This document shows positions 43,101 through 61,918 of a stretch of 64,000 nt of DNA, one piece after another. A program made the translations under genes and the position numbers. How positions within the stretch are numbered: position 1 is the first letter of the stretch; each line of letters begins with the position of its first letter. The notes beneath the pieces are model-generated. The model was not told the DNA's origin. It did not search any database and saw only the letters and a program-made list of their open reading frames with translations. This DNA comes from Macrostomum lignano (taxonomy: Eukaryota), in the NCBI GenBank assembly GCA_002269645.1, contig NIVC01000862.1, positions 124,001 through 188,000 of the forward strand. The letters are read 5' to 3'.

Positions 43101-43625
43101 AATGTATGACTTTGACTATACATCATGTAAAGTGCCATATGTCGTGTCATGTCATATCATGTAAAGTGACGCTAATAAATATATCGATCACTGCCCCGCG
43201 GGGGCTTTCGTGGTTTGATCTCGCACTGCGTAACACTAGTGTTACAAATGTATCTGGATTTTTGGTCCTATAGCTATGTTGGATTCCTGTACGGGCGTAA
43301 CCAAGGAAGGAAGCACTGCTGGGGATACAAAATTAGCTATGGGAGTGACATTCCAAAAACTTGACAACAGGATAGGCGGATAAACGCGGTTTAGTGCATT
43401 TGCGCAATATTCTGGACTTCCGAGCATCAAAGCCACTTTTGATAAACTTGGTCTCGTTTCAAAGCTGAATATAAATCCTTCACTACTAACAGAGCTTCAA
43501 TAAGACGTTTAATAAAGTATTAATAGTGCTCCCTCGCCATAAAGGCTTTCATCCATTTTTCCAGACCACGAGACCTCGGGGATACTGCACGGTTTCTTTC
43601 CCAAAGCTTGTGACAGAAGACTGTG

Positions 43626-43737
43626 AGTAGTATGGGATAACAGAACTCTGCCGCAGGAATTTCCGTGGAAAAGCCATGGGCCCTAGTGAGTGAACATACG
43701 GCCCTATGTAAATCCATTGAGCGACTCTGCCGCAGGG
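43626..43737 (+). repeat. Polinton left terminal inverted repeat
   Basis: AGTAGTATGGGATAACAGAACTCTGCCGCAGG...GCCGCAGGG is the exact reverse complement of 59281-59392 and 59487-59598. Imperfect similarity continues ~20 bp further in. Confidence 0.95.
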
Positions 43738-43866
43738 AAAGCCACGGAAATTCCATGGGGGGCACATCGGGTGGGCATGGGGGTCCGGTGAGATAACAAA
43801 GCGCATGCTGGTATATGTACTGAAGGAAACTCATTATTGCACCCACCCCACTCCGCCTAGAAAGTA

Positions 43867-43874
43867 TATATAAG
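43867..43874 (+). promoter_or_regulatory. TATA box (TATATAAG) upstream of the PC4-like gene
   Basis: Canonical TATAWAW-type sequence ~75 bp upstream of ATG 43949. Confidence 0.55.
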
Positions 43875-43948
43875 ATGGGCGATTTTTTGAGGTTGGCTTC
43901 ATGACGAAAGGAATTTTTGTGCATCTTTCTTAAAGAAGCATCTCATTA

Positions 43949-44671
43949 ATGGATCTCTGTGACGGCTTCAAAGTTCAAGTGCAAGAGTACGAAGGTCATC
44001 GCTTTATTGCAATCCGACGTTTCTTCTCCTCTGAAAGCGGGCTCAGAGCGGGCATCCCTGGCTTTAACCTCAATGCGTACCAATGGGAGAAGTTGAAGCA
44101 GCTGAAACGCCAGCTTGTGCACTCGGCAGTCAATCGGCACAGCGTCACAGTCAAGCTTGGCTTTGATAAACTCGTTGTGGTCAGCAGGGGCATCATCTGG
44201 CTGAAGCGTCTGCCGGAAGACTGTACAGAGGATTATCTGCGGCGGAACTCAGTGGCGCTGACTCCCCGTCTATGGGGAGAACTCTGGAAGAAGGCCGAGT
44301 GGATCGACAACGAGCTGCGAGAGAAGTCGGCGGAGAGTGAGTATCAGCTGGAGGCCGAGGACATCAAGCATGAGGGCCAAGAAGCACAGCTGGTCAGCGA
44401 AGAAGAAGAGGAGAAGAGGCTGCGCATCGTCGAGTCGGACAATGCAACCAGCTCGCCTGTTCTGCCAGAGACTTCAGTCGGGCGCATACCCCAGCAAGAC
44501 AGCGACCTGTCGCACGACCCACTGTGGTACCGGTTCCGTGCTGCTTCAGGGCTCGGCAACAGCGGCTGTCACAAACGAAAGCTTCCGTGGCCCCTGCGCA
44601 GGCAAAATGCAATCAAGTTGCCCAAAGTGATCAATGGTGGAGAGGATGGTGACGCAGAAAAAAGTGCTTGA
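43949..44671 (+). CDS. PC4/Sub1-like ssDNA-binding protein (two PC4-like repeats + acidic tail)
   Basis: FKVQVQEYEGHRFIAIRRFF..GLRAGIPGFNLNAYQWEKLK fits the PC4 pattern V.V.EF.G...IDIR.Y....G.KGISL...QW..L. A weaker second unit is KLGFDKLVVV..IIWLKR..NSVALTPRLWGEL. Confidence 0.75.
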   Translation: MDLCDGFKVQVQEYEGHRFIAIRRFFSSESGLRAGIPGFNLNAYQWEKLKQLKRQLVHSAVNRHSVTVKLGFDKLVVVSRGIIWLKRLPEDCTEDYLRRNSVALTPRLWGELWKKAEWIDNELREKSAESEYQLEAEDIKHEGQEAQLVSEEEEEKRLRIVESDNATSSPVLPETSVGRIPQQDSDLSHDPLWYRFRAASGLGNSGCHKRKLPWPLRRQNAIKLPKVINGGEDGDAEKSA

Positions 44672-44898
44672 TAAACTTTTTAAGTGACTATGCGTGGACA
44701 TTGCTATGCCATCTGTACGAGTATTGATGTCTAACAGTTCTATTTATCCAGCTTTTTCAGCTTATTCATTAATGTCCTATTAAATGAGCTCGTTTAAAAT
44801 TAAAAATAAAATAAAATAAGCATCTCTCTCTATAATTATGCTAGTTTACTGGTAAACTTAAGAATGCGAAATGAGTTTAATTTTTTCTCTAATTGAAA

Positions 44899-45966
44899 AT
44901 GGAAAAGATTTACTTTAACCCTGAGCAGCCAGCAAGCTTTTCTGGCTGCAATAAATTTATTAATGAAGTTCGCACGCAGGGTATCCGAGTGAGTGAAAAA
45001 GCTGCGAAAAACTGGCTTAACGATCAGACAGTCTACACATTACATAAGCCAGCAAGGAGGAATTATCCGAGGGCCCCAATCATAGTTCGAAGTATTGATG
45101 ACCAATGGGAGTTGGATCTGGTGGAGATGATTCCTTTTTCCAAGTATAATAACGGCTACAGGTATATTCTAACATGCATTGATGTGCTGTCCAAGTACGG
45201 ATGGGCGAGGGCATTAAAGAACAAGTCTTCTATTGAAGTGAAGTCGGCATTCGAGAGCATATTAAGAAGTTCAAAGCGGCAACCGCGCACTGTTCGCACT
45301 GATCAAGGGAAAGAGTTTATCAACTCTACTTTTCGCCAATGCTGTATGGAAAGGGGAATCCTGGCATTCCCAACCAACAGTGAGCAGAAGGCGGCTGTCA
45401 TTGAACGATGGAACCGAACTTTAAAGAGCAAAATGTGGCGCTACTTCACCCACAACAGCACTCTGCATTGGCTTGATGTGCTGGCTAAGCTAGTGAAGTC
45501 CTACAACAAAACTTACCACAGAAGCATACGAATGGCACCAACGAATGTCAGCCAGGAGAACGAGTCCGAGGTCTGGATGAGCCTATATGACGGGAAAGCG
45601 ATTGAAACTGTGGAAAAGCTGGGAAAGCCAAAGTTCAGCGAAAACCAGTCTGTGCGGATTTCCAATGCACCCAGGCTTTTTAGAAAAGGGTACAAGGCCA
45701 ACTGGAGCGAAGAAGTGTACACGGTGGTGTCCAGAGCTCCAAAGCATTATCCCTACATGTACAAGATAAAAGACATGGAAGGAGAAGAGATTCGTGGGCT
45801 TTTTCACGAGCATGAACTGCAGGCCGTTCCGGAGTCGCAGCGGCTGTATGTGATTGAGAAGATTCTGAAGACTGAGAAGCGGAGGCGTAAGATCCGATAT
45901 CTGGTCAAGTGGGCCGGCTACGACTTCACTGACTGGGTGGATGAGAAGGACTTAAGAAAAGTGTAA
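44899..45966 (+). CDS. Retroviral-like (rve) integrase with C-terminal chromodomain
   Basis: IYFNPEQPASFSG N-terminus; catalytic WELDLVEM, RTDQGKEF and VIERWNRTLK; chromodomain YVIEKILK..YLVKWAGY..DW. Frame intact. Confidence 0.95.
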   Translation: MEKIYFNPEQPASFSGCNKFINEVRTQGIRVSEKAAKNWLNDQTVYTLHKPARRNYPRAPIIVRSIDDQWELDLVEMIPFSKYNNGYRYILTCIDVLSKYGWARALKNKSSIEVKSAFESILRSSKRQPRTVRTDQGKEFINSTFRQCCMERGILAFPTNSEQKAAVIERWNRTLKSKMWRYFTHNSTLHWLDVLAKLVKSYNKTYHRSIRMAPTNVSQENESEVWMSLYDGKAIETVEKLGKPKFSENQSVRISNAPRLFRKGYKANWSEEVYTVVSRAPKHYPYMYKIKDMEGEEIRGLFHEHELQAVPESQRLYVIEKILKTEKRRRKIRYLVKWAGYDFTDWVDEKDLRKV

Positions 45967-45978
45967 GATGCCGACATT

Positions 45979-46806
45979 GTGCAGCCATTCCCAATTATGA
46001 GAAGCATCATCATTAACAGCGAAAATGCTGAAGGTACTCCTACTGACTTTCATTTTCACCTGCCTTCACCTATTTACTTGGATCGAAATGTGGACTATGA
46101 GGCAGGTCTGGCTGAAATCCATCTGCCTGCTGCATGGTTCAATGTTGACGAGCCTTACTGCTTCACTGTCTCAGATGGAAGAGAGCATGAGGCCTTGGTT
46201 CTTCAACCCGGACGCTTTGCTAGAGTGGAGGAGTTGGTGGAGCGCATGAATGAACTGCTGGCCAACTCTGAGTCACTGTTCTTCGATGCAATGAGCGAGA
46301 GGGAGTCTGAAATGGAGGCTGATGAGTCTGGTTTAATGGGGCGGAGCAGCGCTAGAGATATTGGCATAAAGTTTGAGATCCAAGAATTGAGAACGGTAGT
46401 GCTCAACAACACGGCTCGAGCAGAATTATTCCTTCCATCAAGTAAAATTCTGCAGTGGCTGGGATTCGGAAATCAGTCCGTGAAAATTCCACCTGGGCGC
46501 CAAGTTTCCATGTACCACATTGGCTGCCCGCCCACCAATCTGATCAACGTGCATTGTAGCATTGTGGAGTCAACTAATTGCAACTGGAATTCCCTGCTGC
46601 GAACTGTGAACATGAATCCTGAAGCCGGATGGGGAAGCTACTGGAGCAAAGTGTTTAAGAAAACAGTTTTCTTCCCCATTCAGAAAACAAATTTTCTACA
46701 CAGCATTCGAGTTCAACTGCGAGACATCTTTGGCTTCTCACTGACTGCTCATAGCGGCAGCCCTGTTCTGCTCACAATTCTGATACGTGAGAGACCAATG
46801 CAATGA
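45979..46806 (+). CDS. Minor capsid protein (penton-like single jelly-roll)
   Basis: DFHFHLPSPIYL..YEAGLAEIHLPAAWFNV and C-terminal INVHCSIVE..LLRTV..IRVQLRDIFG resemble Polinton minor capsid proteins. Position in the gene cluster fits. First ATG is at 45997. Confidence 0.75.
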   Translation: MQPFPIMRSIIINSENAEGTPTDFHFHLPSPIYLDRNVDYEAGLAEIHLPAAWFNVDEPYCFTVSDGREHEALVLQPGRFARVEELVERMNELLANSESLFFDAMSERESEMEADESGLMGRSSARDIGIKFEIQELRTVVLNNTARAELFLPSSKILQWLGFGNQSVKIPPGRQVSMYHIGCPPTNLINVHCSIVESTNCNWNSLLRTVNMNPEAGWGSYWSKVFKKTVFFPIQKTNFLHSIRVQLRDIFGFSLTAHSGSPVLLTILIRERPMQ

Positions 46807-47219
46807 ACTATCAGCAGCTGATTCGGCAGTATTCAGGGACTCGGACGGGAAATGAAAAGTCCATGCTCTATGGCTGCGGGAGTTTTCCTGGAATAATGAC
46901 TTACCAGCCTCCTCCAGCACCTTCCATAACATCATCATCATCATTAGCATCAAAGCCTGTACAAACCAGCAGTAGCAGCAGAAGCAATAGTACGAGTAAT
47001 AGAAACATAGGAAATCAAGCACAGGCTAAAAAGGTGAATAAGAAGCAGGTGCGCATGAAGAAGAAGAAAAAAAGTGGCGAAGCACGCAAAACAAGCAAGG
47101 TCAGAACAAGCAAGCAACCTAAGAAAAGAACGACTAAAACACAGACCAAGAAAACAGGCAAAAGAAACCAAAAAGTGGGCAAAGAAACTGTGAAGCGTGT
47201 TCTGGACTCACTCTCATAG
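46803..47219 (+). CDS. Small basic, Lys-rich putative core (DNA-condensing) protein
   Basis: Lies immediately upstream of MCP. K/R-rich C-terminal half. LYGCG fits the adenain cleavage consensus (M/L/I)xGx/G. ATGA overlap with the upstream stop. Confidence 0.55.
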   Translation: MNYQQLIRQYSGTRTGNEKSMLYGCGSFPGIMTYQPPPAPSITSSSSLASKPVQTSSSSRSNSTSNRNIGNQAQAKKVNKKQVRMKKKKKSGEARKTSKVRTSKQPKKRTTKTQTKKTGKRNQKVGKETVKRVLDSLS

Positions 47220-47221
47220 CA

Positions 47222-48504
47222 ATGGCTTACGGATTCAACCCGAGACTCGATTTGTTCAAGTCCCCCGTGCTGCAGACTGCTATTGAAAAATCCACGTATG
47301 TTGATATTCACCCCGTGAACTCTATTACTACTAACTCACCTATTGAATTCGACTGCCATCCATCGGCTGATGAGTACACTGATCTGCTGAGCTCATTCCT
47401 GTATATTCGCTGTCGCCTAGTCCGGCTTGGCGGGGCTTTGATGAGGGAGGAGGTTCGGAATGCCGATGGAGTTGTCACTGAGCGCAGAGACAGTGGGGTG
47501 CACCCAGAAAACTTTGTCCTGTCTACGGCATTCTCAGATGTAATCGTGAGCATCAACCAGCGCATTGTCTCAGGTGGAGACCAGCTCTACCCCTACCATG
47601 CCTACCTAAAAGCTCTCATGAGCTCATCCGATGCTCAGCAGTTAAATTTCTACCCCGCCGGATTCCTGGAACCCGAAACTGCTGCTGAGGGGCATGCCGA
47701 GAGACACAGGGAGTCCCGCTGGGTGGAGTATGCGGGACCGCTGCTCAGCGACATCTTCCAGTGTCCTGTTCTGCTGCTGAACAATTTACACCTGCACATC
47801 AAGCTGATGCCCAGTGATGCTGCATTCGCCATTCGAACCCCAGATGAGAACAACACAGCCTACCGAATGGAAATCTCCCACTGCATTCTGAACCTGCGCC
47901 GAGTCAAAGTGGCGCCTCACATCAGCCTAGCGCATGAGCAGGGACTTACCAATCAGAACGCACTTTACCCCATCGAGCGAACCGAAATGCAAAACTTCAT
48001 TCTACCCCAGGGAATTCAGTCAAAAAACATTGAAGGATTCACCCATGGCAAACTGCCGAAGTTCGTTATGCTGGTCTTCGTGAACCACCGAGCCTTCAAT
48101 GGCCATCACCATTCCAGCCCCTTCGAGTTCCAGAGCTTCAACCTCAGCCAGCTAGCACTAAAGAAAGGTGGTGAAGCCATGTGCCACGCTGCATTTGCAC
48201 CTGAGAATAATTCATTCGTGAGAGAGTACTTGCACTACCTGAAAAGCTGTCAGTCTGCCAGCCCTACCAACTCGGTTCCGTGGGTCCCCTACCAGTTGTT
48301 CTCCAACGGCAACACAGCTTTCGCATTCGATCTCACGCCTGAGGGAGCGGCCCTGTGGTACGGACAGAAGGAGGGAATTTGCGGCTGGAGATTCGCTTCC
48401 GACAGGCCCTGGAGGAGCCTGTATCTCTGATTGTTATGTGCCTGTATGACTCACTGATTGAGGTCACGAAGCACAGGGAGATTCTGCTAGATTTTCCATC
48501 CTAG
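47222..48504 (+). CDS. Major capsid protein (double jelly-roll); one frameshift near 48372
   Basis: LDLFKSPVLQTAIEKSTYVDIHP..PIEF..DEYTDL and FEFQSFNLSQL are Maverick MCP motifs. The shifted frame gives the expected C-terminus GNLRLEIRF..LIVMCLYDSLIEV..REILLDF*. Confidence 0.9.
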
Positions 48505-48527
48505 GAGTACGCTGGCGCAACGCTAAT

Positions 48528-49040
48528 ATGGATGCTTTTCAACTGCTTAAACTGGCTAAAAGCTTTTTGCCACAAAATAACTATTTAATTATTGTCTTGA
48601 ATTCAATAAATAAAACATCTTATGCTTTAAACTTTATTCAGCGAGCAACTCTCAAAAGAAATTTATCTCGATGTAAGTTTATTTTCTTTCTGCTTCAGTA
48701 CGGCTCGTCCTTTGGTCACTGGGTGGTTTGTTATGCCAATAAGGAGAATTCCATAGAACTCTTTAACTCTCTGGGCTGGGACTCAAGCACTTTAGAGATC
48801 ATTCACAGAGCACTGAAATCCTTTTGGTATTCTCCATTCTACTTACGTAGCAATGTGAATCGAATTCAGAGCTGCAACTCTGCTAAATGCGGTTTGTTCT
48901 GTCTCTTGTTTGCCTATCAAAAGTTTCGTTTCAAGCGCTCGTTTGAGTGGGTTCTGCGGCACCTCCATGCAAATCAGCAGAGCCACTTGAATGAAAGAAT
49001 TCTGCAAAGGTTTGAGAGTTGCTTAAGAAAAAAAATTTAA
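48528..49040 (+). CDS. Adenain-like cysteine protease
   Basis: GHWVVCY (His), IELFNSLG, and RIQSCNSAKCGLFC (Gln, Cys). Confidence 0.85.
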   Translation: MDAFQLLKLAKSFLPQNNYLIIVLNSINKTSYALNFIQRATLKRNLSRCKFIFFLLQYGSSFGHWVVCYANKENSIELFNSLGWDSSTLEIIHRALKSFWYSPFYLRSNVNRIQSCNSAKCGLFCLLFAYQKFRFKRSFEWVLRHLHANQQSHLNERILQRFESCLRKKI

Positions 49041-49077
49041 TTAGACTTTTAAAATCAAGGATTTAGCTCAACAGGCG

Positions 49078-49729
49078 ATGGAAACACGTGAGCGGATAAA
49101 CTGTTATGATGTGCGCCTGCGACAGGAAGCTGCATGATTGTCAGCGGGCCTACAAATGCAGGAAAGACAACCTTCGTGAAACATCTGATACAATACAAGG
49201 ATGTCATGTTTGATGTGAAGCCTGGGAGAGTTCTGTGGTACTACGGAATTTCACAAGCAGCACACTCTGAGCTCAGCAGTCTCGGCGTGCACTGCAGCAG
49301 GGATTTCCCAGCAGTATCGAGACCGCACTGAGACCCAATGACCTGGTTGTATTTGATGACCTGATTGAAGAAACTTCCAATTCTGCTGCAATGCGAAATG
49401 TTTTCACTGGAATTGCCCATCATTTGCCCTGCTTTCTGGTTATGCTGACCCAAAATGTATTTTTTAAAGGGAAGGAGTTGCGAACAATGAGTCTGAATGC
49501 GATGTACTTTGTGATCATGAAGAACCCCAGAGACCAGCTGCAGATTGCGGCGCTGGGCAGGCAGTGTTTTGCTGAGAAGCCCGGCTTTCTGCTGTCAGTG
49601 TTCAAGCACGTGACATCGCACGGCAGGGGAGCCTACCTGCTCCTGGATTTTCACCCTTCCACCCCTGATGAGCTGCGGGTCCGGGCTCGAATCCTGCCCA
49701 ATCAGCGACCCCACCTGGTTTACACTTAA
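49078..49729 (+). CDS. A32/FtsK-like packaging ATPase; two apparent 1-nt deletions (~49125, ~49290)
   Basis: Walker A GPTNAGKT; Walker B LVVFDDL in the next frame; HH..LVMLTQNVF..RTMSLNAMYFVIMKNPRD..YLLLDFHP. Confidence 0.9.
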
Positions 49730-49776
49730 GAATAACAGCCGAGATTTTGCCATTTGCTCTATATTCTGCAACACTA

Positions 49777-50094
49777 ATGATAATGGAAACATTCGACTCA
49801 CATGAAAGTTTGTTTGATGTTCTCGCCTCACCGAAATATTCCATCAGCTTTAAACGTCTGTTGATCAGAGCGGGTCCAAAAGCAGTACATGAATTTCTCA
49901 TTGAGGCCTGCTATAACCTATTGCAAAACACTCTGTCGTTCTCACTCACTGAAAAGGCAGCGCTAGTGAAGCAAAAGCAAATAATCCGCAAAATTTCTAC
50001 ACATAGAAGAGCTGCGGATCTGCTAAATACGGGTTTTATCAAAATTCTCTACATTCTAATAAAGCTAGTGAAGAAAAAGAAACAAAATGAATAA
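49777..50094 (+). CDS. Conserved small Polinton protein (PW-like), function unknown
   Basis: LLIRAGPKAVHEFLIEACYNLL..EKAALVKQKQIIRKIS resembles the recurrent Maverick pattern I..CICECALN.L.G...L...K..LR.LA. Confidence 0.55.
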   Translation: MIMETFDSHESLFDVLASPKYSISFKRLLIRAGPKAVHEFLIEACYNLLQNTLSFSLTEKAALVKQKQIIRKISTHRRAADLLNTGFIKILYILIKLVKKKKQNE

Positions 50095-50779
50095 GTTCTC
50101 AGAAATGGTTCTGATCCCCAAGTCAGAATACGACATGCTCACACAGAATTTGAAGCCAGTTGAGTCTGAACTCGACACTGCTGTGAGATATGCGCAGAGG
50201 AAATGCAATGATATTTTGCTTGCCGAGGATTGCCCAGACGATGTGAAAGCTGCCATGTACCATGATGCGATGAAGAGTTTGCTGGCCAAGCGCAAGCGGA
50301 CTGGAAAGGATGATGCGGTACCTGCGAGTGATGCAAAGATGCTGAAAACTGATATTGCACCAAGCAGCTGGGGGGAAAAGATCACCCAATCCGTGCCGCA
50401 GAAGTTTAAAGCGAGAGCCCGCAGTCTATGGGCCATCCTATCTGGCAATCCTTCTCTGATTCGGGTGTCCGAAAATGGCGAGGCGCAAATTTGTGGGAAG
50501 ACAATACCCTCCTCAAACATCCTGGATTTGTTTCACAGTGCCGTGAGGGATTCGAAATGTGCCAGCGAGCCGGTGGGCTGGAGTGAGTTTGTCTCATTGC
50601 TCCAAGATAAAAAGCTTAACATCCCAGCTTCGGCCATAGGAAAGTCAGTTAGGCAGCTAATTTCTAAACCTGCTGTTTCTCCAGAGGCCGCCCCTGCTCA
50701 TCATACAGTTAAAGGATTCGGGAGTGGGAGAGCTTGGCTACAGCTGAACAGGAAAAAACTATTTAAGAAGGGGAACTGA
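50087..50779 (+). CDS. Uncharacterised Polinton protein (230 aa)
   Basis: Intact ORF overlapping the upstream stop. MVLIP, SNILDL, P.GW..F..LL...NIP..AIG resemble a family recurrent in Mavericks. Confidence 0.6.
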   Translation: MNKFSEMVLIPKSEYDMLTQNLKPVESELDTAVRYAQRKCNDILLAEDCPDDVKAAMYHDAMKSLLAKRKRTGKDDAVPASDAKMLKTDIAPSSWGEKITQSVPQKFKARARSLWAILSGNPSLIRVSENGEAQICGKTIPSSNILDLFHSAVRDSKCASEPVGWSEFVSLLQDKKLNIPASAIGKSVRQLISKPAVSPEAAPAHHTVKGFGSGRAWLQLNRKKLFKKGN

Positions 50780-50819
50780 GTCGGCTTCCCGATATCAGGC
50801 ATCTTGAAACCATCCGATC

Positions 50820-51314
50820 ATGAACTATATTGACTTCCAAGGCTTCCCACGCGAGAGATCGAGCAGAGATTTCGTTGTGAAGGAGCTAGCCATTGCCCAA
50901 GTCCGGGCAGGCAGTTACCATATCACTCATCACGTGTACGCCTCTCCGTTCTCATGGGAGCGAATCTCACCTGAGATGCAGGTGCATTACAGAAAGCTCT
51001 CAAAGAATTTGCATCATTTCAAGTGGACAGATGGATCCCGATCGTACATGCATTTGGCAAATGACATTCTAAACATTGCTTACGGCCCCACCTGGACAAG
51101 CGGGGTGAAAAAGTCCATCTTTCTGACTGAGCTGCTTGGCAGACAGGTGTACAACCTAGAGGATCTGGGATCACCTTTGATTCAAGCATCTGATACTGGT
51201 TGTGCAGTGAAAAATGTATTGCTCTACTACAACTGGCTGAAGCCAAAGTTCTGTATCAACTTAAGAAGCGAGTGTGCCCGCACACTCAAAGGCTCTCAAA
51301 GACAGCACCACTGA
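50820..51314 (+). CDS. DnaQ/DEDD-exonuclease-like small protein
   Basis: YIDFQGF..FVVKELAI..HHFKWTDG..Y..NLEDLG..CAVKNV pattern. The fold assignment is inference. Confidence 0.5.
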   Translation: MNYIDFQGFPRERSSRDFVVKELAIAQVRAGSYHITHHVYASPFSWERISPEMQVHYRKLSKNLHHFKWTDGSRSYMHLANDILNIAYGPTWTSGVKKSIFLTELLGRQVYNLEDLGSPLIQASDTGCAVKNVLLYYNWLKPKFCINLRSECARTLKGSQRQHH

Positions 51315-51331
51315 CAGAAAGGACTCTCTAA

Positions 51332-51895
51332 ATGAGTACACCTGCGACAGCCCTGCGAGTGACCAATCTGGTTGGCGGCGTGGATCTGAGGCTGGCTGGA
51401 GGCAGGGGTGCCCAGTTGCCTCTGCGGGAACTGGCTCTCAGCATGGCTCATGTCATCTATCGCCCGTCTGGCCCCGAGTGCTCATCAAGAGGATGCGGAA
51501 TCCCAGAGTGACTCTATTGCTCTATCCGACTGGACAACTGAGTATCTGTGGCGCCCGGAGCTACTCGGCCTCAGTCAGGCTGCCCGTCGCTTCGTGGCTA
51601 TGCTGCATCGCAGAGTTCCGCCTCAACTGCTGCCTCGTCAATCCGTTTGTGTCGAATTAAGACTATTACTGCTTATGGAAAAATAGACTTGCCCAAGGCT
51701 CTATCACTAAGAAACCTCTGTGAAGTGCTACCGAATGCGAAATATGAACCTGAAAGTTTTACTGCTTTAGTTTGTCAGCTTCAATACTGCAAGTGTACGC
51801 TTTTTCACAATGGCTCATTTGTGCTCAGCGGAGCAAAGTCTAAGCATATGCTACAATCAGACCGTTCCCTATTAGCTTGCTTGCTTTCAAACTGA
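51332..51895 (+). CDS. TATA-binding protein (TBP)-like gene, ~188 aa after correcting three 1-nt deletions
   Basis: Repeat 1: LRVTNLVGGVDL..LPLRELALSMAHVIYRPSGP/RVLIKRMRNPRVTLLLYPTGQLSICGARS/LSQAARRFVAML. Repeat 2: IKTITAYGKIDLPKALSLRNLCEVLPNAKYEPESFTALVCQLQYCKCTLFHNGSFVLSGAKS. Both align to the TBP core (QNIV..V.L..LDL..IA....AEYNP..F..VIMR..P..T.LIF.SGK.V.TGAKS..AARK.AR; YEPELF.GL..). Confidence 0.8.
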
Positions 51896-52453
51896 AATAA
51901 ATAAAAAGAAAGAATAAATCGCGGCTTGTTTAATTAAAATATTCAAATTAATTCTCTCTCATGCACTAGCTTTTTGTCTTCATTTTTAATTGCAATGAAA
52001 AACCAGTGGTGAACATCTTGTAGAGATAAACAAATAGCAAGCTAAAAGCAAATACGAGCAAGCAGATAAACCACTACAAAAATAGGAAAAAATAGTCCAA
52101 AAGCAGATGGAATATATTAAAACTTATAAAGCAATATCAGGATTCAAAAAACCAACCACAAAGTACAGGTAAAATTAGAAAAAAATAAAACTCTCACATG
52201 CCATCACCGCAAACACACCACCACCACTAACGAAGCATTGGTTTCATTATCATCATCGCGCAATTGTAAGTAAATATTGTGAAGCAAAAAATTGTTGCTA
52301 GCCTCAGCAGATGATCAAAGTTTTTATTGCATTTGGGAAAAATCCTATTTAGATTAGCGGTTAACCTTTATTCAATGTCAAAGAAAGAAACTTTGAAATC
52401 GCAAAGAAATTATTGTTTTTGTTTAGCAAGCTTGTTGTACTCATTATTCAATT

Positions 52454-52571
52454 TCAAAGTAGTCGGCGCCGTTTTGATGATTTCTGCTGCTGTTGCTGTT
52501 GTTGCTGTTGTTGTTGTTGTTGTTGCTGCTGTTGCTGTTGTTGCTGTTGTTGTTGTTGTTGTTGTTGTTGT

Positions 52572-52613
<42 letters not shown>

Positions 52614-55600
52614 AGCAGCCGAATGTGACCAAATGGGAGACTATAGTTAGGGCTCAGCCAAGCGCGCTTGTCTTCCCAAATGCTTAAGGCACACTTCCGC
52701 TGCTGCAAAGTGTACAGTCGGTGATGGATGCTGGCAATACGATGAACAACGACAGAATGGCTGCAGAGCTCATTGAACACCCTTAGGTAGTCACTGTGAG
52801 CCAGCTCTTTCTTAACAATGCATCCTTGAACTCCTTTGGCCTTCTTCTTTTCCGCGGCTTGGCTACTCGCCTTGAATGAGTAAAGCTTCGGCCTTAGGAG
52901 CAGCCACTCCTCAAAGCGAGCACCGGCTGCTTCATCCTTAATGCAGCCAAGTCGCGCTTTTAAATCATTCGAGAATAGCGCGTGCTCTTGAGGATAGTTT
53001 GAAGTGTCGAGCAGCTGCTTCGACTTCAACAGCGGTAGAACTTTAGACTGAACGCTCATGTTGCTGATTGAGAGAAAGAAAGAATCGGTATCACCACCGC
53101 ATAGCTTGATGACACCTCCATCGTTCTCTATCCAGGGCTTCAGTTTGTCGTAAAACAGCTCGTACATAATCATTTTCGAAAAGTCTAGGACGCATTGCCC
53201 GATAAAAATAGGCCGATCGAGCTTTAATTTTGTCTTTTGCAGTTCCAAAACGCTTAGTGAATCAGTAATTATGATAAAATTGGTAATTGTCGGCTTGGCA
53301 AGCAGTACCTTTACCTTTTCCACGTTGGTGCAGACTCGAATATCACGCCGCTTTCGCACATTCTCCATAGTTTTGCCGAATAGCGCGTTATTCTTTAACT
53401 TGTAGAAATCCTTTTCGAAGTTGGTTTTCGCTGCAGCCCGCTTCTGGCTATTTTTCTCGACGTAGGCAGCAAAGAGAGGCTCTTGGTGAAACTCAATCAT
53501 GCGATTGATGCGTCTAACCCGCATTCCATGGTTCAGGTAGAACGCCAAAATAGAGGAATGAACCACATAGGAAGGCTTATCGTGACAAGTGAGCATCAGC
53601 TTCTCTGTCGGATGATAGGTGGAGTTCTCCGTACCGACCTTTTCCCACAGCTGCTGCATGTATTCAGGAAATTCCCTGAAATTCGGGGCAGCCTTTTCCG
53701 GTGCAAATGGCAGGTCTTCGGTGGTTTCGTGAATCTCTGGGGGATACTCAAGGTCAACATCAAAGAGGTAGGCGAGTGGATCGGTTAGCTTGAGTCCTCG
53801 AATGCGATCTTCAGTCCACAAAAGCAGCTCATCATCGTCCAGCCAACGGAATCCTCCGACTGGTAAGTTCATAGTGAGCGCCTGTCCATACAGGTTGTTT
53901 GCATCCACAGCAAGAAGCTCGGTGAGGCCAGCATGAATAGTAGGAGTGCCACCATCAACATCCTCATTGCTGTCAACACCAGTGCTGGCGCCCGCTGCTG
54001 AGGTAGCCTGCACTTTGTGGATGTTAACAAACGACATGCCGCCGCGAATGCCGCGCTCAAACAGCGAATACATCTGCGCATCTGTTAGCAGTTCAATCCC
54101 TGACTTGATGGATTTCAATGCCGAAGCGAATGATAGGCCTGGTGTCGAAATAAAATGGACTGGATCAAGGCCATCCTCTTGCATGCTGATCTTGCGAAAA
54201 TTTTCAAAAATATCAGCCAACTGCCTGATGTCGAGCTCGAGGTAGCACAGCATGTACTCTTTTAGATTTGAAACCTGAAATTCTCGCCAGGCGCGTTGAG
54301 CATGCTCATAGTCAGAGTTGGTGCAGTGGCTCTTAGTCAGAGCATTGTAGAAGCTCTCTTGGCTGGGAAGCACGGCATCCTTCAGCACGTCTGAATTTTT
54401 AAGATAGTCATACGGGAAAACTCCCTTGCTGAAAAGCACTTCGGATGATAGCAGTGGGAATCTGCTGCGTAGGCGACTAGTGATACGACATTCAGCCTCT
54501 GGTAAATTTTTGATGAGCTGTGAGAGGCTGGCATTAAGAAATTGATTCGAATCAATGAACTGAATAGTAAAATTTAGGCTTGATCTTGCCCTCACTCTCA
54601 TACTCGCCGATTTTAAATTCGATTTTCATCGACAGAAACTGCTCTGGATTCAGAGGGATGACGGAGATTTTCCAACCCTCCATCAGACCCAAAGCGGATG
54701 ACATCATGAGATGGAGATCGTACCCCTTGAAATTGTGGAACACGACGGGAAGGAAAGACCTCTTTAGTCTGGCCTTCATATTACAATCAGCACACGCAGC
54801 TCCCCGAAATTCTCCGCTGAGGTGGTCGTGATCCCAATGTTTATTGGACCCTTCCGTGAATTCGCTTCCACAATAGCAGCAAGCTGTGGCTTCTCTGAAC
54901 TGTCGCCCTGCCATCTCTGTTCTTATCGCTGCTTGTCGACTGAACTCCGTGTTCCAGCCGTAAACTTCACGAGCGAGCTTCTCCAGCGATTGCAGGAAAT
55001 CGGAAATGCACTTATTAGGATCGTCGCTGACAAAAGTGCTCACTTTATCATCCGCTCCTCTGGGCGCTAGACCAGTCATCCCTTCTCTGTGCAGCACGAT
55101 GTAGCCAGCAGCAACAGCAATGTGCTCAGTTAACTTCTTCGTTGCTATACCAGCAATCGAATCTTCTTGGCATGGAGCATTCAATGCTTCGAAGTCGGCG
55201 TAAACAACAAATGGCGGACTAATTGTTTTTTCCCATGATGAGAATCGGAGAATATTATTCCTTTCATCCGGCAACTCTTCCTTTACGTTGATCACTCCAG
55301 GTTGACAAGGAGCTCGCTGTGTTCTTCAAAGGCTGCATCACTATGAAAGGGCAGCAAGCAGCGCTCACACCACTTCCGCCGATGCAGAGCTGCCTTGCTA
55401 TTAAGAAGCCTGTTGATGCTTGAAACAGCACACCAATGACCCGAGGCCTCGTCTTCTGATGGTGGAATAAATAAGAGTAGAACAACTTCTCGATCTTTAA
55501 TTGTAGCTGCAGTAGGCAAGCGGAGGACTTGAGCGCTCTCTTTCTCCCAGATGAAAACCGTGAAGCAAAGTCTCGGGTTCAGTCTCTCAACAATGGAAAG

Positions 55601-56763
55601 GTCAGTGACATTGATTGGCAAGTCAATTCCACTCATGTTAAGTTCATCCAGCCAGTCAGTGTAGGAAGACTCGCGTTGCGCTGATTTCTTTATTTTGTTG
55701 TCTTCCTTGTGCAGAAAAGCAAGGCATGCGTAAAGAAAGCAATTTACACCATTGCTTGGAGGACAAATAACCGCCTTCTTCCGAAGAAGTGGAGTCGGTA
55801 GAATAAATTCCGCAGCATGCCCGTGTAGTAGGAAACTCGTTCGACGAGAGCTGAGTAAAGTTCAAAAAAATTAATTTTTTCAATTATCCAGCCACTACCG
55901 TTGGTGTTGTAGACATCGACTTTGCGCTCCAGCTCTGTAAACTGCTGTCTCCACCAATCATCAAACTCCTGTATATCTACCATCAATCCGAGTTGTGTGC
56001 TCATCCATTTATCCTCCCCCTTGACAGCTTCTGACGCCTGCACTCTGACCATGTGCAAATTCAGTTTGATCTGAGCTTTAACAGAGCAATTATCCGAAGA
56101 GTCGAAGCGAATTTCAAGACACTGCTGCACTGCGATTTTGCAGAAATCGAGAAACTCGAATGTTTCAGTGGCAGCTCCAGGTGTAAATCGATGAACTTGA
56201 AGAACATCTTCGTGAGCGCTGGTTTTTAACGCCAGGGTGAATGAAGGTCCTACAATTGAAGAAGGGAAGATAGTATTAAAATATTTATGGAAAGTGGAAA
56301 TGATGAGAAATGTCTCTGGGAGTTATGGAAGTCGAATATTTTATTGCCCTTTTTACACTTACGAGTATACTATTTATCCTACTACCTTATATCTAGATTT
56401 AATATTTTTTTATTAATCAATACGAGCTACGTATAAGTGTAAAAAAAGAATTTGAAGAGTTATTATTGAAGAAATAGATGGAGTTCTGCTTTCGCATTTT
56501 TGTCAATTCATCTAATGAGGAATAAAAATGTCTCATTATTGTGAGTTCTCCGGCTTAATCCTGTTGGGAACCATTTGGGAGTTGTTGTGTAGGCGAGAAA
56601 AATAAAATATATAATTCCGTTGCTAAGAGACAGGAATGCAACAAACAGAAATGCATGAGTTCATAAAACCAGCAATGGAATGAAAAAACTCACCACTCGG
56701 TCCAAATTCGTGGCTGACAGCTGGGTCCACCGGCTCGTCCTCTTGACTCGATGAGGTGGCCAT
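52454..56763 (-). CDS. Protein-primed DNA polymerase B (pPolB), ~1290 aa, probably spliced; three small deletions in this copy
   Basis: Motifs: VVYADFEA (ExoI), EndoVII-like CCYC..DHDHLSGEFRGAAC..CN, VVFHNFKGYDLH, KGVFPYDY, AVDANNLYGQAL, KLKNNALFGKT, GGDTDSFF, KKKAKGV. Exon 1 is 56694-56763 and exon 2 runs 56249 to 52454. The deletions at ~54577 (2 nt), ~55317 and ~55827 are absent from the duplicate copy. Confidence 0.93.
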
Positions 56764-57466
56764 TGCAGAGGATTAATATTAGAAATAGAGCGACATTCAG
56801 TGAAGAACTCAATGCTGCTGAAATTCCAGTGTAAAAGTGTTGTTTGATAAATTTAACCCAAGAGCAATTCTGTCAGAGATGTAGTGGAGTGATAAATTTC
56901 CAGCATTCAGAGCTCTATGGAGCAGAAATTGAATCTAACCAAAGTCATGCTTGACTAACCAAATTCATGTCATTCTAAACATTGGGTATCATAGATAATC
57001 AATCCCATATTATACTCATAGAGTTGAGTAGATGCTGTGAACCTAACGGTAATTCTATAAGCCAGTGAACTTATAACTTCTTCGAAGATATTCATGTTTG
57101 AAAAAAAACAAGTAATGAATTCAACAAAGTCCAAGAAAGTGCAAAAGCTTTCATTAAAAGCAACCATCAATCCATTATATTTCTGGTAAAGCATTTCCCA
57201 ATGCAAAAAATCATGCTCGTTAGTCACCCTACTAATTAAAGCTGCTTATTAAAGCTTTATTATAAGAATAAGTTTGAATAGTAAGCCTAAATGATTTTCT
57301 TTTTCACTTTGCTTAGGATATTAATGAGAAACCTGTATGAGCACGATGAGGTGCAACGTAATTACGCTCGTAGTTAATATTTATGCAGGGTAGAATGCAT
57401 TGGTTTTCGGCTAAAAATATACAAATCTCGTTTCCCCTACTTTTAAATACTTTGAACTGGGACACT

Positions 57467-58453
57467 TTAAGAGCTACTTAAGCGAATGCGAGTTCCTCCC
57501 CCAAGGTCAATAAAATACTCGCCCTCGACTCTGCTCGGTAGTACCAGCTGAATGCAGAGTGACGGTGGCATCGGTGGCATGGCTGCTACGACTGGGATGT
57601 CACCGGTTTGGATTTCTGGTGCAGCCGGTGGAGTAGGAGGTTCGAATTCTCGCAGGAGATCGGTTAGGCTTGCTTCTGCCATCATTCTGGCTTGCTCCAT
57701 TTTTTTTCCTGCGACTGGAACAGGCCTGTAGGGTGGCATCTGTTGCTGCTCAGCTTCTTCATTTGCCATCTCAACAGGCTCCAACTCGATATCCTGGAAG
57801 AAGGCAGTATCCAACTCCGAAGGAGCTGCAAAACCAGTGGAATCGTCAGCCGGGTGGCCGGCATCAGCAGTTGGAAGCCCGGCACCGTCAGCGGGGAGGC
57901 CGGCATCAGCAGTTGGAAGGCCGGCACCGTCAGCGGGGAGGCCGGCATCAGTAGTTGGAAGGCCGGCACCGTCAGCTGGGAGGCCGGCATCAGTAGTTGG
58001 AAGGCCGGCACCGGTTGAACCAAAAAAATCTGATTGCTGCTCCACAGCGGCAAGTGCAGCAGCAAGCAGATCAAAGTTTGCGTCGGTAGCGTGCTGAAAA
58101 TCTTCATCAGGCTGCTGAAAGACGCCCTGAATTGTCTGGCTGAGTGCGCTGACCGGTGCTCGACTGCGCTCGATAATGTTGAGCTGCTCTTGACGCTGGG
58201 CAGCCTCCAAGGCAGCAAAGCGGGCTCGTTTTAAATCTCCAGGTGAGCTCCAGTTAATAATAATGTGGTTTTTGTGAGCTCGAACTTGCTGGCGCACATT
58301 AAAGAGCTCACGCGTCTGGCACTCGTGGCAAAGCAGCCAGCGACTGACATTGCAGCTGCTTTTCATTTTGTGACGTTTTAAGCCACCGAGCTCACATGAG
58401 TTGCAGGAAATGCATACCTCGTACACATATGAAGGGCAGCGCGATTTATTCAT
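57467..58453 (-). CDS. Uncharacterised 328-aa protein: Cys/His-rich N-terminus, four 14-aa repeats, acidic/Pro-rich C-terminal half
   Basis: Intact ATG-to-stop ORF, identical in the duplicate copy, with a TATA box upstream. Confidence 0.65.
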   Translation of the reverse strand: MNKSRCPSYVYEVCISCNSCELGGLKRHKMKSSCNVSRWLLCHECQTRELFNVRQQVRAHKNHIIINWSSPGDLKRARFAALEAAQRQEQLNIIERSRAPVSALSQTIQGVFQQPDEDFQHATDANFDLLAAALAAVEQQSDFFGSTGAGLPTTDAGLPADGAGLPTTDAGLPADGAGLPTADAGLPADGAGLPTADAGHPADDSTGFAAPSELDTAFFQDIELEPVEMANEEAEQQQMPPYRPVPVAGKKMEQARMMAEASLTDLLREFEPPTPPAAPEIQTGDIPVVAAMPPMPPSLCIQLVLPSRVEGEYFIDLGGGTRIRLSSS

Positions 58454-58547
58454 TCCAAATTTTTAAATGTTTGAATAGAAAAATCAAATTGAAGTTAAAT
58501 TCAAATTAGAAGTAGAAACTTATGTCCCGTATTCAAGTATACGGTGT

Positions 58548-58555
58548 CTTATATA
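58548..58555 (-). promoter_or_regulatory. TATA box (TATATAAG) upstream of the 328-aa gene
   Basis: Same 8-mer as at 43867, ~95 bp upstream of ATG 58453. Confidence 0.55.
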
Positions 58556-58593
58556 CCTCGCTTATTCGAATCTGCGTTAATAAAAACATAGCC

Positions 58594-58640
58594 GCTATGT
58601 TTACAGCTTAGCTATGTTTACAGCTTAGCTATGTTTACAG
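58594..58640. repeat. 17-bp triplet GCTATGTTTACAGCTTA containing TGTTTAC
   Basis: Read directly: two full copies and one partial. Confidence 0.85.
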
Positions 58641-58893
58641 TCAGTAACCCAGCCGTCTCAGAAACCGGGTTTTTTAAAATAATTTTATTAGAAAACCCAG
58701 GTACAGAGCCTCTATTGAAAGCATACATGTACAAAAGTTCCTTTGCACTTGCCGCCAACTGGAACTCCCGACCAGACTGGGGAGCAATAAAACTGATAAC
58801 TATTGAGCGTCCAATTCCATTTAGCAACACACCCACCACCCCAAGAAAGGGGGAGATGCTTGGCTATTATAATCTTATTAAAGCAGCATCTTG

Positions 58894-58936
58894 TTATTGA
58901 AACTTTTGCCTAATTAATAGGCAAAAGTTTCAATAA
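58894..58936. other. Perfect 19-bp inverted repeat with 5-nt loop (hairpin/cruciform)
   Basis: TTATTGAAACTTTTGCCTA-ATTAA-TAGGCAAAAGTTTCAATAA. Confidence 0.85.
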
Positions 58937-59280
58937 ATTCCAAAATTCCAAAATCCTTAAATTCCAAAATCAAGTGATTTTTTCAACAGTTGGTAGCTCA
59001 AATTTTAGACATGAATTGCAAATTGATTTTATTGTAATCATTGAAATAAAGACACGCCCCTCCTCCTTTTACGATACCCGATTGAATATTAAATGTCATT
59101 CAGAAGCAAAGCATTGCCTGGTTTTATGAACCGAACCGCCTGTGTCCGTCGTAGCAGAACACACATTTGCCAATACTCATTCATTGCGGTTAACGGAATT
59201 CCCGCGGAGCCCCACCCCATTCGCAAATACTTTCACCAATGTACTCTCACTAGGAGGTCTCACGGAATTTCCATGGCCTG

Positions 59281-59392
59281 CCCTGCGGCAGAGTCGCTCA
59301 ATGGATTTACATAGGGCCGTATGTTCACTCACTAGGGCCCATGGCTTTTCCACGGAAATTCCTGCGGCAGAGTTCTGTTATCCCATACTACT
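59281..59392 (-). repeat. Polinton right terminal inverted repeat
   Basis: Reverse complement of 43626-43737; ends ...CCCATACTACT. Confidence 0.95.
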
Positions 59393-59404
59393 ACTGTTAT
59401 CCCA

Positions 59405-59598
59405 TTCCCGCGGAGCCCCACCCCATTCGCAAATACTTTCACCAATGTACTCTCACTAGGAGGTCTCACGGAATTTCCATGGCCTGCCCTGCGGCAGAGT
59501 CGCTCAATGGATTTACATAGGGCCGTATGTTCACTCACTAGGGCCCATGGCTTTTCCACGGAAATTCCTGCGGCAGAGTTCTGTTATCCCATACTACT
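59405..59598 (-). repeat. Tandem duplicate of the right end (59199-59392) including a second full TIR (59487-59598)
   Basis: Direct repeat at a 206-bp offset with 12-nt filler ACTGTTATCCCA. Confidence 0.9.
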
Positions 59599-59599
59599 T

Positions 59600-61918
59600 C
59601 TACAGTGGGAATCTGCTGCGTAGGCGACTAGTGATACGACATTCAGCCTCTGGTAAATTTTTGATGAGCTGTGAGAGGCTGGCATTAAGAAATTGATTCG
59701 AATCAATGAACTGAATAGTAAAATTTAGGGGCTTGATCTTGCCCTCACTCTCATACTCGCCGATTTTAAATTCGATTTTCATCGACAGAAACTGCTCTGG
59801 ATTCAGAGGGATGACGGAGATTTTCCAACCCTCCATCAGACCCAAAGCGGATGACATCATGAGATGGAGATCGTACCCCTTGAAATTGTGGAACACGACG
59901 GGAAGGAAAGACCTCTTTAGTCTGGCCTTCATATTACAATCAGCACACGCAGCTCCCCGAAATTCTCCACTGAGGTGGTCGTGATCCCAATGTTTATTGG
60001 ACCCTTCCGTGAATTCGCTTCCACAATAGCAGCAAGCTGTGGCTTCTCTGAACTGTCGCCCTGCTATCTCAGTTCTTATCGCTGCTTGTCGACTGAACTC
60101 CGTGTTCCAGCCGTAAACTTCACGAGCGAGCTTCTCCAGCGATTGCAGGAAATCGGAAATGCACTTATTAGGATCGTCGCTGACAAAAGTGCTCACTTTA
60201 TCATCCGCTCCTCTGGGCGCTAGACCAGTCATCCCTTCTCTGTGCAGCACGATGTAGCCAGCAGCAACAGCAATGTGCTCAGTTAACTTCTTCGTTGCTA
60301 TACCAGCAATCGAATCTTCTTGGCATGGAGCATTCAATGCTTCGAAGTCGGCGTAAACAACAAATGGCGGACTAATTGTTTTTTCCCATGATGAGAATCG
60401 GAGAATATTATTCCTTTCATCCGGCAACTCTTCCTTTACGTTGATCACTCCAGGTTGACAAGGAGCTCGCCTGTGTTCTTCAAAGGCTGCATCACTATGA
60501 AAGGGCAGCAAGCAGCGCTCACACCACTTCCGCCGATGCAGAGCTGCCTTGCTATTAAGAAGCCTGTTGATGCTTGAAACAGCACACCAATGACCCGAGG
60601 CCTCGTCTTCTGATGGTGGAATAAATAAGAGTAGAACAACTTCTCGATCTTTAATTGTAGCTGCAGTAGGCAAGCGGAGGACTTGAGCGCTCTCTTTCTC
60701 CCAGATGAAAACCGTGAAGCAAAGTCTCGGGTTCAGTCTCTCAACAATGGAAAGGTCAGTGACATTGATTGGCAAGTCAATTCCACTCATGTTAAGTTCA
60801 TCCAGCCAGTCAGTGTAGGAAGACTCGCGTTGCGCTGATTTCTTTATTTTGTTGTCTTCCTTGTGCAGAAAAGCAAGGCATGCGTAAAGAAAGCAATTTA
60901 CACCATTGCTTGGAGGACAAATAACCGCCTTCTTCCGAAGAAGTGGAGTCGGTAGAATAAATTCCGCAGCATGCCCGGTGTAGTAGGAAACTCGTTCGAC
61001 GAGAGCTGAGTAAAGTTCAAAAAAATTAATTTTTTCAATTATCCAGCCACTACCGTTGGTGTTGTAGACATCGACTTTGCGCTCCAGCTCTGTAAACTGC
61101 TGTCTCCACCAATCATCAAACTCCTGTATATCTACCATCAATCCGAGTTGTGTGCTCATCCATTTATCCTCCCCCTTGACAGCTTCTGACGCCTGCACTC
61201 TGACCATGTGCAAATTCAGTTTGATCTGAGCTTTAACAGAGCAATTATCCGAAGAGTCGAAGCGAATTTCAAGACACTGCTGCACTGCGATTTTGCAGAA
61301 ATCGAGAAACTCGAATGTTTCAGTGGCAGCTCCAGGTGTAAATCGATGAACTTGAAGAACATCTTCGTGAGCGCTGGTTTTTAACGCCAGGGTGAATGAA
61401 GGTCCTACAATTGAAGAAGGGAAGATAGTATTAAAATATTTATGGAAAGTGGAAATGATGAGAAATGTCTCTGGGAGTTATGGAAGTCGAATATTTTATT
61501 GCCCTTTTTACACTTACGAGTATACTATTTATCCTACTACCTTATATCTAGATTTAATATTTTTTTATTAATCAATGCGAGCTACGTATAAGTGTAAAAA
61601 AAGAATTTGAAGAGTTATTATTGAAGAAATAGATGGAGTTCTGCTTTCGCATTTGTGTCAATTCATCTAATGAGGAATAAAAATGTCTCATTATTGTGAG
61701 TTCTCCGGCTTAATCCTGTTGGGAACCATTTGGGAGTTGTTGTGTAGGCGAGAAAAATAAAATATATAATTCCGTTGCTAAGAGACAGGAATGCAACAAA
61801 CAGAAATGCATGAGTTCATAAAACCAGCAATGGAATGAAAAAACTCACCACTCGGTCCAAATTCGTGGCTGACAGCTGGGTCCACCGGCTCGTCCTCTTG
61901 ACTCGATGAGGTGGCCAT
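59600..61918 (-). CDS. 5' half of pPolB (~624 aa), frame intact, truncated by a TAG at the duplication junction
   Basis: Exon 1 is 61849-61918, intron 61405-61848, exon 2 61404-59600. The 561-aa ORF in the track lies within exon 2. Confidence 0.8.

Follow-up and report, generated by a model that had tools for sequence, protein, structure and literature searches.

The stretch of DNA analysed here, called the window, comprises 64,000 nucleotides of the Macrostomum lignano genome (assembly GCA_002269645.1, contig NIVC01000862.1, positions 124,001 to 188,000 of the forward strand), and all coordinates refer to it. At 43626-59392 it carries an element of 15,767 bp which, by its testable features, is a Polinton/Maverick. 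We consider it likely that the element is young and belongs to a multi-copy Polinton/Maverick family of the M. lignano germ line, that the family keeps open genes for replication and morphogenesis, and that most frameshifts of the assembled copy are long-read errors. The following features were found within the element and at its right border:

43626..43737, plus strand: left terminal inverted repeat (TIR), begins AGTAGT, with an internal hairpin-forming repeat
43949..44671, plus strand: PC4-like open reading frame (ORF) of 240 amino acids (aa) with an acidic tail; N-terminal PC4-like domain of the kind that binds single-stranded DNA; TATA-like box at 43865
44899..45966, plus strand: rve integrase with C-terminal chromodomain, 355 aa, open (Pfam rve, PF00665, E 8e-13; Chromo, E 5e-4)
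45997..46806, plus strand: minor capsid (penton) candidate, 269 aa, open, named from Atlas and one relative
46803..47219, plus strand: basic ORF between the minor and the major capsid gene, 138 aa, 24% Lys plus Arg, no significant family match
47222..48504, plus strand: predicted double-jelly-roll major capsid protein (MCP) gene, its frame shifting once near 48.4 kb in the assembly
48528..49040, plus strand: adenain/Ulp1-type cysteine protease, 170 aa (Pfam Peptidase_C5, PF00770, E 3e-5, over the cut-off)
49078..49729, plus strand: packaging ATPase, assigned to the A32/FtsK type from position and motifs; the frame changes twice as assembled, near 49.1 and 49.3 kb
49777..50094, plus strand: ORF of 105 aa, no Pfam or NCBIfam match
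50087..50779, plus strand: ORF of 230 aa, no Pfam or NCBIfam match
50820..51314, plus strand: nuclease-like ORF, 164 aa, 3' end uncertain where contigs vary in length
51332..51895, plus strand: divergent TBP-like gene (TBP, TATA-binding protein) of about 187 codons, three frame changes at 51.45-51.66 kb as assembled
52454..56322, minus strand: protein-primed DNA polymerase B (pPolB); it has Exo and Pol motifs, an EndoVII insert, Cys/His motifs like those of vOTU and a poly-Gln tract at its end
57467..58453, minus strand: 'Oncoid'-like ORF upstream of pPolB, 328 aa, with LxCxE, two CxxC motifs and 7-aa repeats
59281..59392, minus strand: right TIR (first), terminates ACTACT
59404..59598, no strand given: exact 195-bp repeat of the right end, TIR included, in tandem
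59603..64000, minus strand: second partial copy of the right part (54452-58845), ends at the window edge

An earlier reading of the letters alone, hereafter the sequence-only reading, had claimed perfect 112-bp TIRs, and this is correct: 43626-43737 and 59281-59392 match exactly over 112 bp, the first mismatch is position 113, and the match stretches to 132 bp at 97%. The ends AGTAGT...ACTACT consist of the AG or AGT repeats that characterise Polinton/Maverick TIRs, and the length of the element lies within the range of about 13-25 kb given for this group. In PMC8097293, (AGT)2//(ACT)2 is described as a Maverick terminus. The left TIR folds with z = -2.47, a stability equalled in 3 of 200 shuffles, and an Rfam scan of 40000-64000 returned no matches. 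On the plus strand, the PC4-like gene is followed by the integrase, the penton candidate, the basic 138-aa ORF, the MCP, the protease and the ATPase, then by the ORFs of 105 and 230 aa, the nuclease-like ORF and the TBP-like gene; pPolB and the 328-aa LxCxE protein occupy the minus strand. Gene junctions in the block from integrase to exonuclease measure -8 to +47 nt, in good agreement with the tight or overlapping junctions reported before. Two short ORFs were observed in the AT-rich right part, one at 56970-57245 (minus strand, 74-91 codons, without family match) and one at 58631-58900 (plus strand, 89 codons).

The sequence-only reading also described a Polinton with a virion module and all six hallmark genes. 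The virion module is supported, as are five of these genes, namely pPolB, integrase, protease, MCP and ATPase; the sixth, the minor capsid gene, stays a candidate. Likewise, the integrase, the minor capsid candidate, the protease and most accessory ORFs are open, as had been stated. The integrase shows the D-D-E motifs of the rve family. In case of the penton candidate, position and size suit a minor capsid protein and the Atlas match is weak: feature matches of 0.97-0.98 point to preplasmiviricot clusters including Sputnik V18/19, at a recognition of 2289, narrowly below the 2300 mark. One relative, 59% identical, was found, and a structure prediction from the resulting two-sequence alignment gave no usable fold (pLDDT 28.5). 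The basic ORF next to it is possibly a DNA-condensing core protein.

The MCP gene has no Pfam match and few relatives (10 at E <= 0.001). One of these, P0001 (427 aa), aligns to it at 78% and 81% in two frames (tblastn), and the predicted fold of P0001 is a double jelly roll with the PBCV-1 capsid as best Foldseek match (E 4e-13), the SGIV and mavirus capsids being further matches. Judged from the modelled fold of this 78% identical relative, the window gene encodes a double-jelly-roll capsid protein. The protease carries the His, Gln and Cys motifs and an Asn where an acidic residue is usual. Its last codons fall in an A-run where contigs vary in length. Walker A and Walker B motifs of the ATPase lie in successive frames, its P-loop matches are weak (best E 0.004), and a profile search gave no confirmation of the A32 subfamily.

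The polymerase is recognised by Pfam DNA_pol_B_2 (PF03175, E 2e-11) and Endonuclease_7 (E 1e-7). As assembled it has three frame changes, near 54.6, 55.3 and 55.8 kb, and it is collinear with a relative of 1,281 aa, P0170, across residues 26-1252. Cys and His motifs stand at the position of the vOTU domain, which is described for such polymerases in PMC11071308. The EndoVII insert (PF02945) is carried by 100 of the 120 best relatives listed, and the poly-Gln tract of about 42 codons (52454-52613) is absent from the five relatives examined. The LxCxE motif of the ORF upstream appears in 5% of 10,000 shuffles of this 328-aa sequence and is thus modest when taken alone; adintoviruses are described as having an LxCxE/CxxC 'Oncoid' upstream of PolB (PMC8502044).

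Both TIRs are in place at 43626 and 59392, as the sequence-only reading had it. What it overlooked is the right flank, which consists of element DNA and not of host DNA. The stretch 59603-64000 is 99.8% identical to 54452-58845 (5 mismatches, 3 gaps) and contains the 5' half of pPolB, 625 open codons cut at the junction, together with the Oncoid-like ORF. If this second copy continued past the window it would meet a TIR near 64,547, and the outermost right end of the element is probably outside the window. At the ends within the window, a clean 6-bp target-site duplication (TSD) cannot be seen. Of the 6 bp that follow the first right TIR, five are the same as in the 6 bp preceding the left TIR, and no such match follows the second TIR. 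Since the five-of-six match sits inside an 11-bp spacer that repeats TIR sequence, and since the right flank is element-derived, a TSD is not demonstrated.

With regard to the origin of this duplication, we lean towards a real template-switch product over an assembly join of alleles or copies. The latter is a serious, if not the favoured, explanation: 59404-64000 would be an assembly artefact joining alleles, homeologs or copies, and the real insertion would be the single element 43626-59392 with its five-of-six TSD. The near identity of the two copies, the five shared positions and the description of the M. lignano assembly as highly redundant (PMC5730564) suit such an artefact. However, the copies differ by five substitutions, the junctions, with their TIR-repeating spacer of 11 bp and a 4-bp filler, resemble template switches, and the five-of-six match inside the spacer may be due to chance.

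The family appears to be multi-copy. Most of the listed sequencing runs (20 of 24, from 8 studies and one organism) contain 57-75% of the words of 43000-52400. The depth of element contigs in run X6 is 218-637 versus 83-112 in flank bins, i.e., two to seven times as much; this is weak evidence, as contig depth is no copy number. None of the listed runs is on record as RNA. Runs X7 and X16 (RNA by guess) cover the element and not part of the flank, and the same holds for X1 (DNA by guess), so that this pattern is no sign of expression. That the insertion is recent, as had been proposed, is borne out at the level of the family by the perfect TIRs, by the neighbouring partial copy and by contigs of four studies that lie 0-2% from the window. 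The further proposal of that reading, a possibly mobilisable virus, is an inference. Loose contig ends at 43645-43760 were observed in runs X1 and X16 (at 43645-43646 in both) among the 23 of 89 loose ends listed. They suggest other Polinton families in the organism that share a sub-terminal TIR motif and have different termini; no other insertion site was found among these 23.

Open relatives of three genes, the MCP (77% identical), the minor capsid candidate (59%) and pPolB (55%), have a contig of 14,411 nt as their longest, and they probably belong to one sister element. These relatives bear on a view in which the family is active as a self-synthesising transposon, its capsid genes have ceased to form particles, and its TBP-like and PC4-like genes are captured passengers without a viral role. 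We regard this as a distinctly less likely account of the family. It draws on the absence of particles, free ends and confirmed RNA from the present evidence, on Maverick particles being unobserved as of PMC8097293 in its available text, and on scans of IMG/VR with the MCP, the TBP P0014 and pPolB P0172, which brought up no relatives. These scans, made with the MCP both as a single sequence and as an alignment, with the short P0014 and with P0172, gave zero loci; a metagenome scan gave 4 loci from 79 candidate stretches, of 1.3-2.0 kb and 26-29% identity, too short for gene neighbourhoods. Against the transposon, MCP, penton candidate and pPolB of the sister are open and full-length at 55-77% identity, which argues for selection on the capsid and polymerase genes, and TBP-like genes are still open at 45-58% identity.

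As assembled, the copy in the window has nine frame changes in four genes (MCP 1, ATPase 2, pPolB 3, TBP-like 3). Three of the six hallmark genes, MCP, ATPase and pPolB, are broken by them, and the core ORFs are thus not open in one copy as the definition of an 'intact' Maverick has it. Short-read contigs from four runs of four studies were compared with 42200-52450 of the window. In run X1, four contigs over 48233-52187 show 3 substitutions versus 11 gap letters in 4,033 nt, and the gaps are unidirectional; among the length differences listed, 11 of 12 are of one kind. For all six frame changes in the MCP, ATPase and TBP-like genes, at least one run has a listed length difference no more than a few bases away. 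In natural decay, substitutions outnumber indels. As indels exceed substitutions here, and in one direction, an error of the long-read consensus is favoured, and most frameshifts in the window are probably of this kind. Published assemblies of M. lignano use PacBio data, and PMC5730564 calls them redundant. The three pPolB break positions are all open in the neighbouring copy at 59603-64000. The designation near-intact is therefore untrue of the sequence as assembled and probably true of the family, as short-read contigs differ in length across the tested breaks.

Several observations weigh against this interpretation. The contigs are family-level and rare variants are dropped, so that they prove neither an intact locus nor a fully open copy, and the pPolB breaks and the right-hand junctions lie outside the contig comparison. 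For the MCP break, X6 is the one run with a listed length difference, at a depth of 1,496 of 2,543; X1 and X7 have one gap in a spanning contig, and the X16 contigs stop there. Between 43.7 and 48.0 kb, substitutions of 1-2% set the window apart from the main contigs, and it is therefore not the dominant variant in this part; several variants exist. Finally, pPolB has no in-frame ATG in its first 90 codons in both copies (56052-56322 and 61207-61477). This start-less 5' part is conserved in P0170, and a pyrimidine-rich CAG at 56320-56316 might act as the acceptor of a splice that brings the start from an upstream exon.

If the frameshifts were real, the locus would be truly defective, a passenger of intact copies elsewhere. 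We hold this to be improbable. The nine frame changes, the rearranged right end, the share of contig depth without the length difference at the MCP break and the degraded state of most Mavericks in vertebrate genomes (PMC8097293) fit a defective copy. The excess of gap letters over substitutions in one direction is unlike natural decay, however; the TIRs are perfect, and the aligned core genes show frame changes only, with no in-frame stop replacing a sense codon.

The sequence-only reading had noted unusual accessory cargo. This holds for the TBP-like and the PC4-like gene only, given that the EndoVII insert is common and the LxCxE protein already described; most of the cargo looks ordinary for Polintons. 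Two pieces of the TBP-like gene match Pfam TBP (PF00352) with E 1e-4 and 2e-9, one piece is 99% identical to a Macrostomum lignano protein record, and the gene has its own ATG at 51332. A stand-alone open relative, P0012 (193 aa), aligns to 51344-51892 with 58% identity over the C-terminal part. P0012 has two TBP repeats (E 4e-22) and matches 35 solved TBP sequences, so that the two repeats which characterise PF00352 are found both on the two window pieces and in P0012. A third member of the lineage, P0148, is 45% identical to P0012, and lineage-specific changes are common to both. P0012 retains aromatic residues at the four positions at which TBP kinks DNA, as well as the acidic EPE/F stirrup; key residues for TATA binding and TFIIB recruitment are in part preserved. 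Altogether, 78 of the 149 TBP-like matches (P0014-P0160) are at most 200 aa long and less than 40% identical to the canonical TBP core; such short divergent matches may represent a wider set of TBPs carried by mobile elements or viruses.

The PC4-like domain aligns to the human PC4 structure with E 0.005, including a Trp; W89 is named as a DNA-stacking residue of PC4 in PMC4350104. A second PC4 repeat suspected in the same ORF was unsupported on comparison. Some caution is due for both genes: P0012 is only about 27% identical to the canonical TBP core, the TBP-like protein replaces the second conserved Asn motif, a TBP inside a Polinton was seen at this locus only (P0012 and P0148 come without context), and Pfam PC4 (PF02229, E 8e-5) scores 22.5-24.2 bits versus a cut-off of 25 bits.

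Among the remaining cargo, we take the ORF at 49777 to be like a small conserved Polinton gene next to PZ / Cupiennin, and the ORF at 50087 presumably resembles PZ/'GasderminX'. The nuclease-like ORF has Atlas matches of 0.95-0.96 to arthropod clusters and of 0.88 to Maelstrom, which serve as a lead only, and a DEDD/Maelstrom-like nuclease fold is probable. Very little speaks for the nuclease-like ORF and the TBP-like gene being one fused gene, as in the database model P0011 (359 aa, recorded as a single protein): the middle of P0011 runs in a frame that misses the N-terminal TBP repeat, the first repeat is encoded in a different frame that has a separate ATG (51332), it corresponds to the stand-alone relative P0012, and P0011 is probably a misprediction bridging the same frame breaks.

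With respect to published systems, this is a known kind of element with unusual TBP/PC4 cargo, as integrase-linked pPolBs of flatworms are already tabulated (PMC10748475). It shares TIRs, rve integrase, pPolB, MCP, minor capsid candidate, ATPase and protease with Polinton/Maverick group 2 pPolB (pPolB1; Jeong et al. 2023, PMC10748475). That study counts 748 integrase-linked pPolB1 in 8 of 73 flatworm genomes, and its table holds 175 and 78 rows for two assemblies. In the window, the span from integrase to pPolB measures 11.4 kb. The two assemblies with 175 and 78 rows are, we assume, those of M. lignano. The same layout from integrase to pPolB, at 11.2-11.5 kb, is found in 6 of the 30 rows listed, where layout and not sequence was compared (PMC10748475). 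TBP or PC4 cargo is unmentioned in the available text and supplement of this source.

Integrase, PolB, hexon, penton (here a candidate), adenain, packaging ATPase and an Oncoid-like gene are common to the element and the adintoviruses (Starrett et al. 2021, PMC8502044); the likeness is one of gene content. In the available parts of that paper, TBP is named only in a figure legend on elements from non-animal datasets, and PC4 nowhere. Intact vertebrate Mavericks (Barreat and Katzourakis 2021, PMC8097293) have the same (AGT)2//(ACT)2 ends, and their ranges of 46-1,447 bp for the TIR and 12.7-24.6 kb for the length include the 112 bp and 15.8 kb observed here. Their gene order differs: in our element the ATPase and the PZ-like gene belong to the capsid block, opposite pPolB. 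Coral polintoviruses (10.1101/2023.10.06.561300) carry VLTF3, a precedent for transcription-factor cargo in Polintons, and no TBP as far as the available text goes. Mirusvirus-like elements (PMC10675990) are a case of TBP in endogenous DNA-virus-like elements, not in an animal Polinton. The available texts of 10.1101/2023.10.06.561300, 10.1101/2024.03.25.586562, PMC11071308 and 10.64898/2026.06.19.733378 do not mention TBP or PC4. We thus found no report of TBP or PC4 in animal Polintons in a partial coverage of the literature, with bioRxiv supplements and Repbase outside it, which does not establish their absence from print. Papers devoted to Polintons or Mavericks of Macrostomum did not come up in this coverage either.

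The host DNA around the element was inspected as well. An intron-rich host gene has exons at 11110-18355 (plus strand) with duplicated NIDO-like segments followed by a VWD domain; 10346-11561 resembles 13100-14305 at 82%, and 11905-13047 resembles 14912-16055 at 89%. It presumably encodes a mucin-4/SUSD2-like extracellular protein. A coiled-coil gene with exons at 27401-34864 (minus strand) includes an exon of 755 codons in which 23-aa and 11-aa repeats abound, and it has no Pfam match; the Polinton sits upstream of this gene or within a long intron of it. Two 42-bp minisatellite arrays at 1-5714 and 35361-39537 comprise 136 and 99.5 copies with 94-96% matches. They are mutually unrelated and both give long stop-free frames; about 20 further arrays lie in 6-43 kb. 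The translation of a GC-rich stretch at 8335-9216 looks by eye like the C-terminal part of a non-LTR (long terminal repeat) reverse transcriptase and has no Pfam match.

Returning to the young, multi-copy family that we prefer, a working cycle can be proposed from the described biology of Polintons. The rve integrase would insert the linear DNA of the element, and pPolB would copy the extrachromosomal form from its AGT-repeat ends, with the vOTU domain freeing the terminal protein. MCP and penton candidate would build a shell into which the ATPase would package the DNA, and the protease would mature the particle. The PC4-like protein may bind displaced single strands or melted promoters, and the LxCxE protein may engage Rb. 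As a role for the PC4-like protein we somewhat favour that of a replication or single-strand helper, the main use as a coactivator being its slightly less probable counterpart; a single-strand-binding helper would be the simplest role, as strand-displacement replication needs one. A nuclear element that uses the host RNA polymerase II would gain from a TBP, either for its own promoters or in escaping host repression. In our view there is an even chance that the TBP-like gene encodes a working, lineage-specific substitute for TBP, which would nucleate host RNA polymerase II on promoters of the element. The main rival is a decoy for partners of the host TBP, which we rate as possible and rather unlikely, and a smaller chance is left for some other role.

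The most far-reaching version is an active endogenous virus with its own transcription kit, in which a TBP substitute with changed DNA contacts and PC4 redirect host RNA polymerase II to viral promoters, the LxCxE protein drives cells into S phase and virions form. We judge it unlikely. If it were true, a transcription strategy like that of giant viruses would exist in a 16-kb animal element, and Polinton particles should be observable in M. lignano. On the technical side, the locus is a caution that long-read indels can make live-looking elements seem dead; they also produced the fused gene model P0011. From the biological side, a young, multi-copy and probably capsid-open family in a tractable laboratory animal bears on the question of particle formation by endogenous Polintons, and a stand-alone, lineage-specific TBP near a PC4-like gene suggests that a small element may govern transcription initiation itself.

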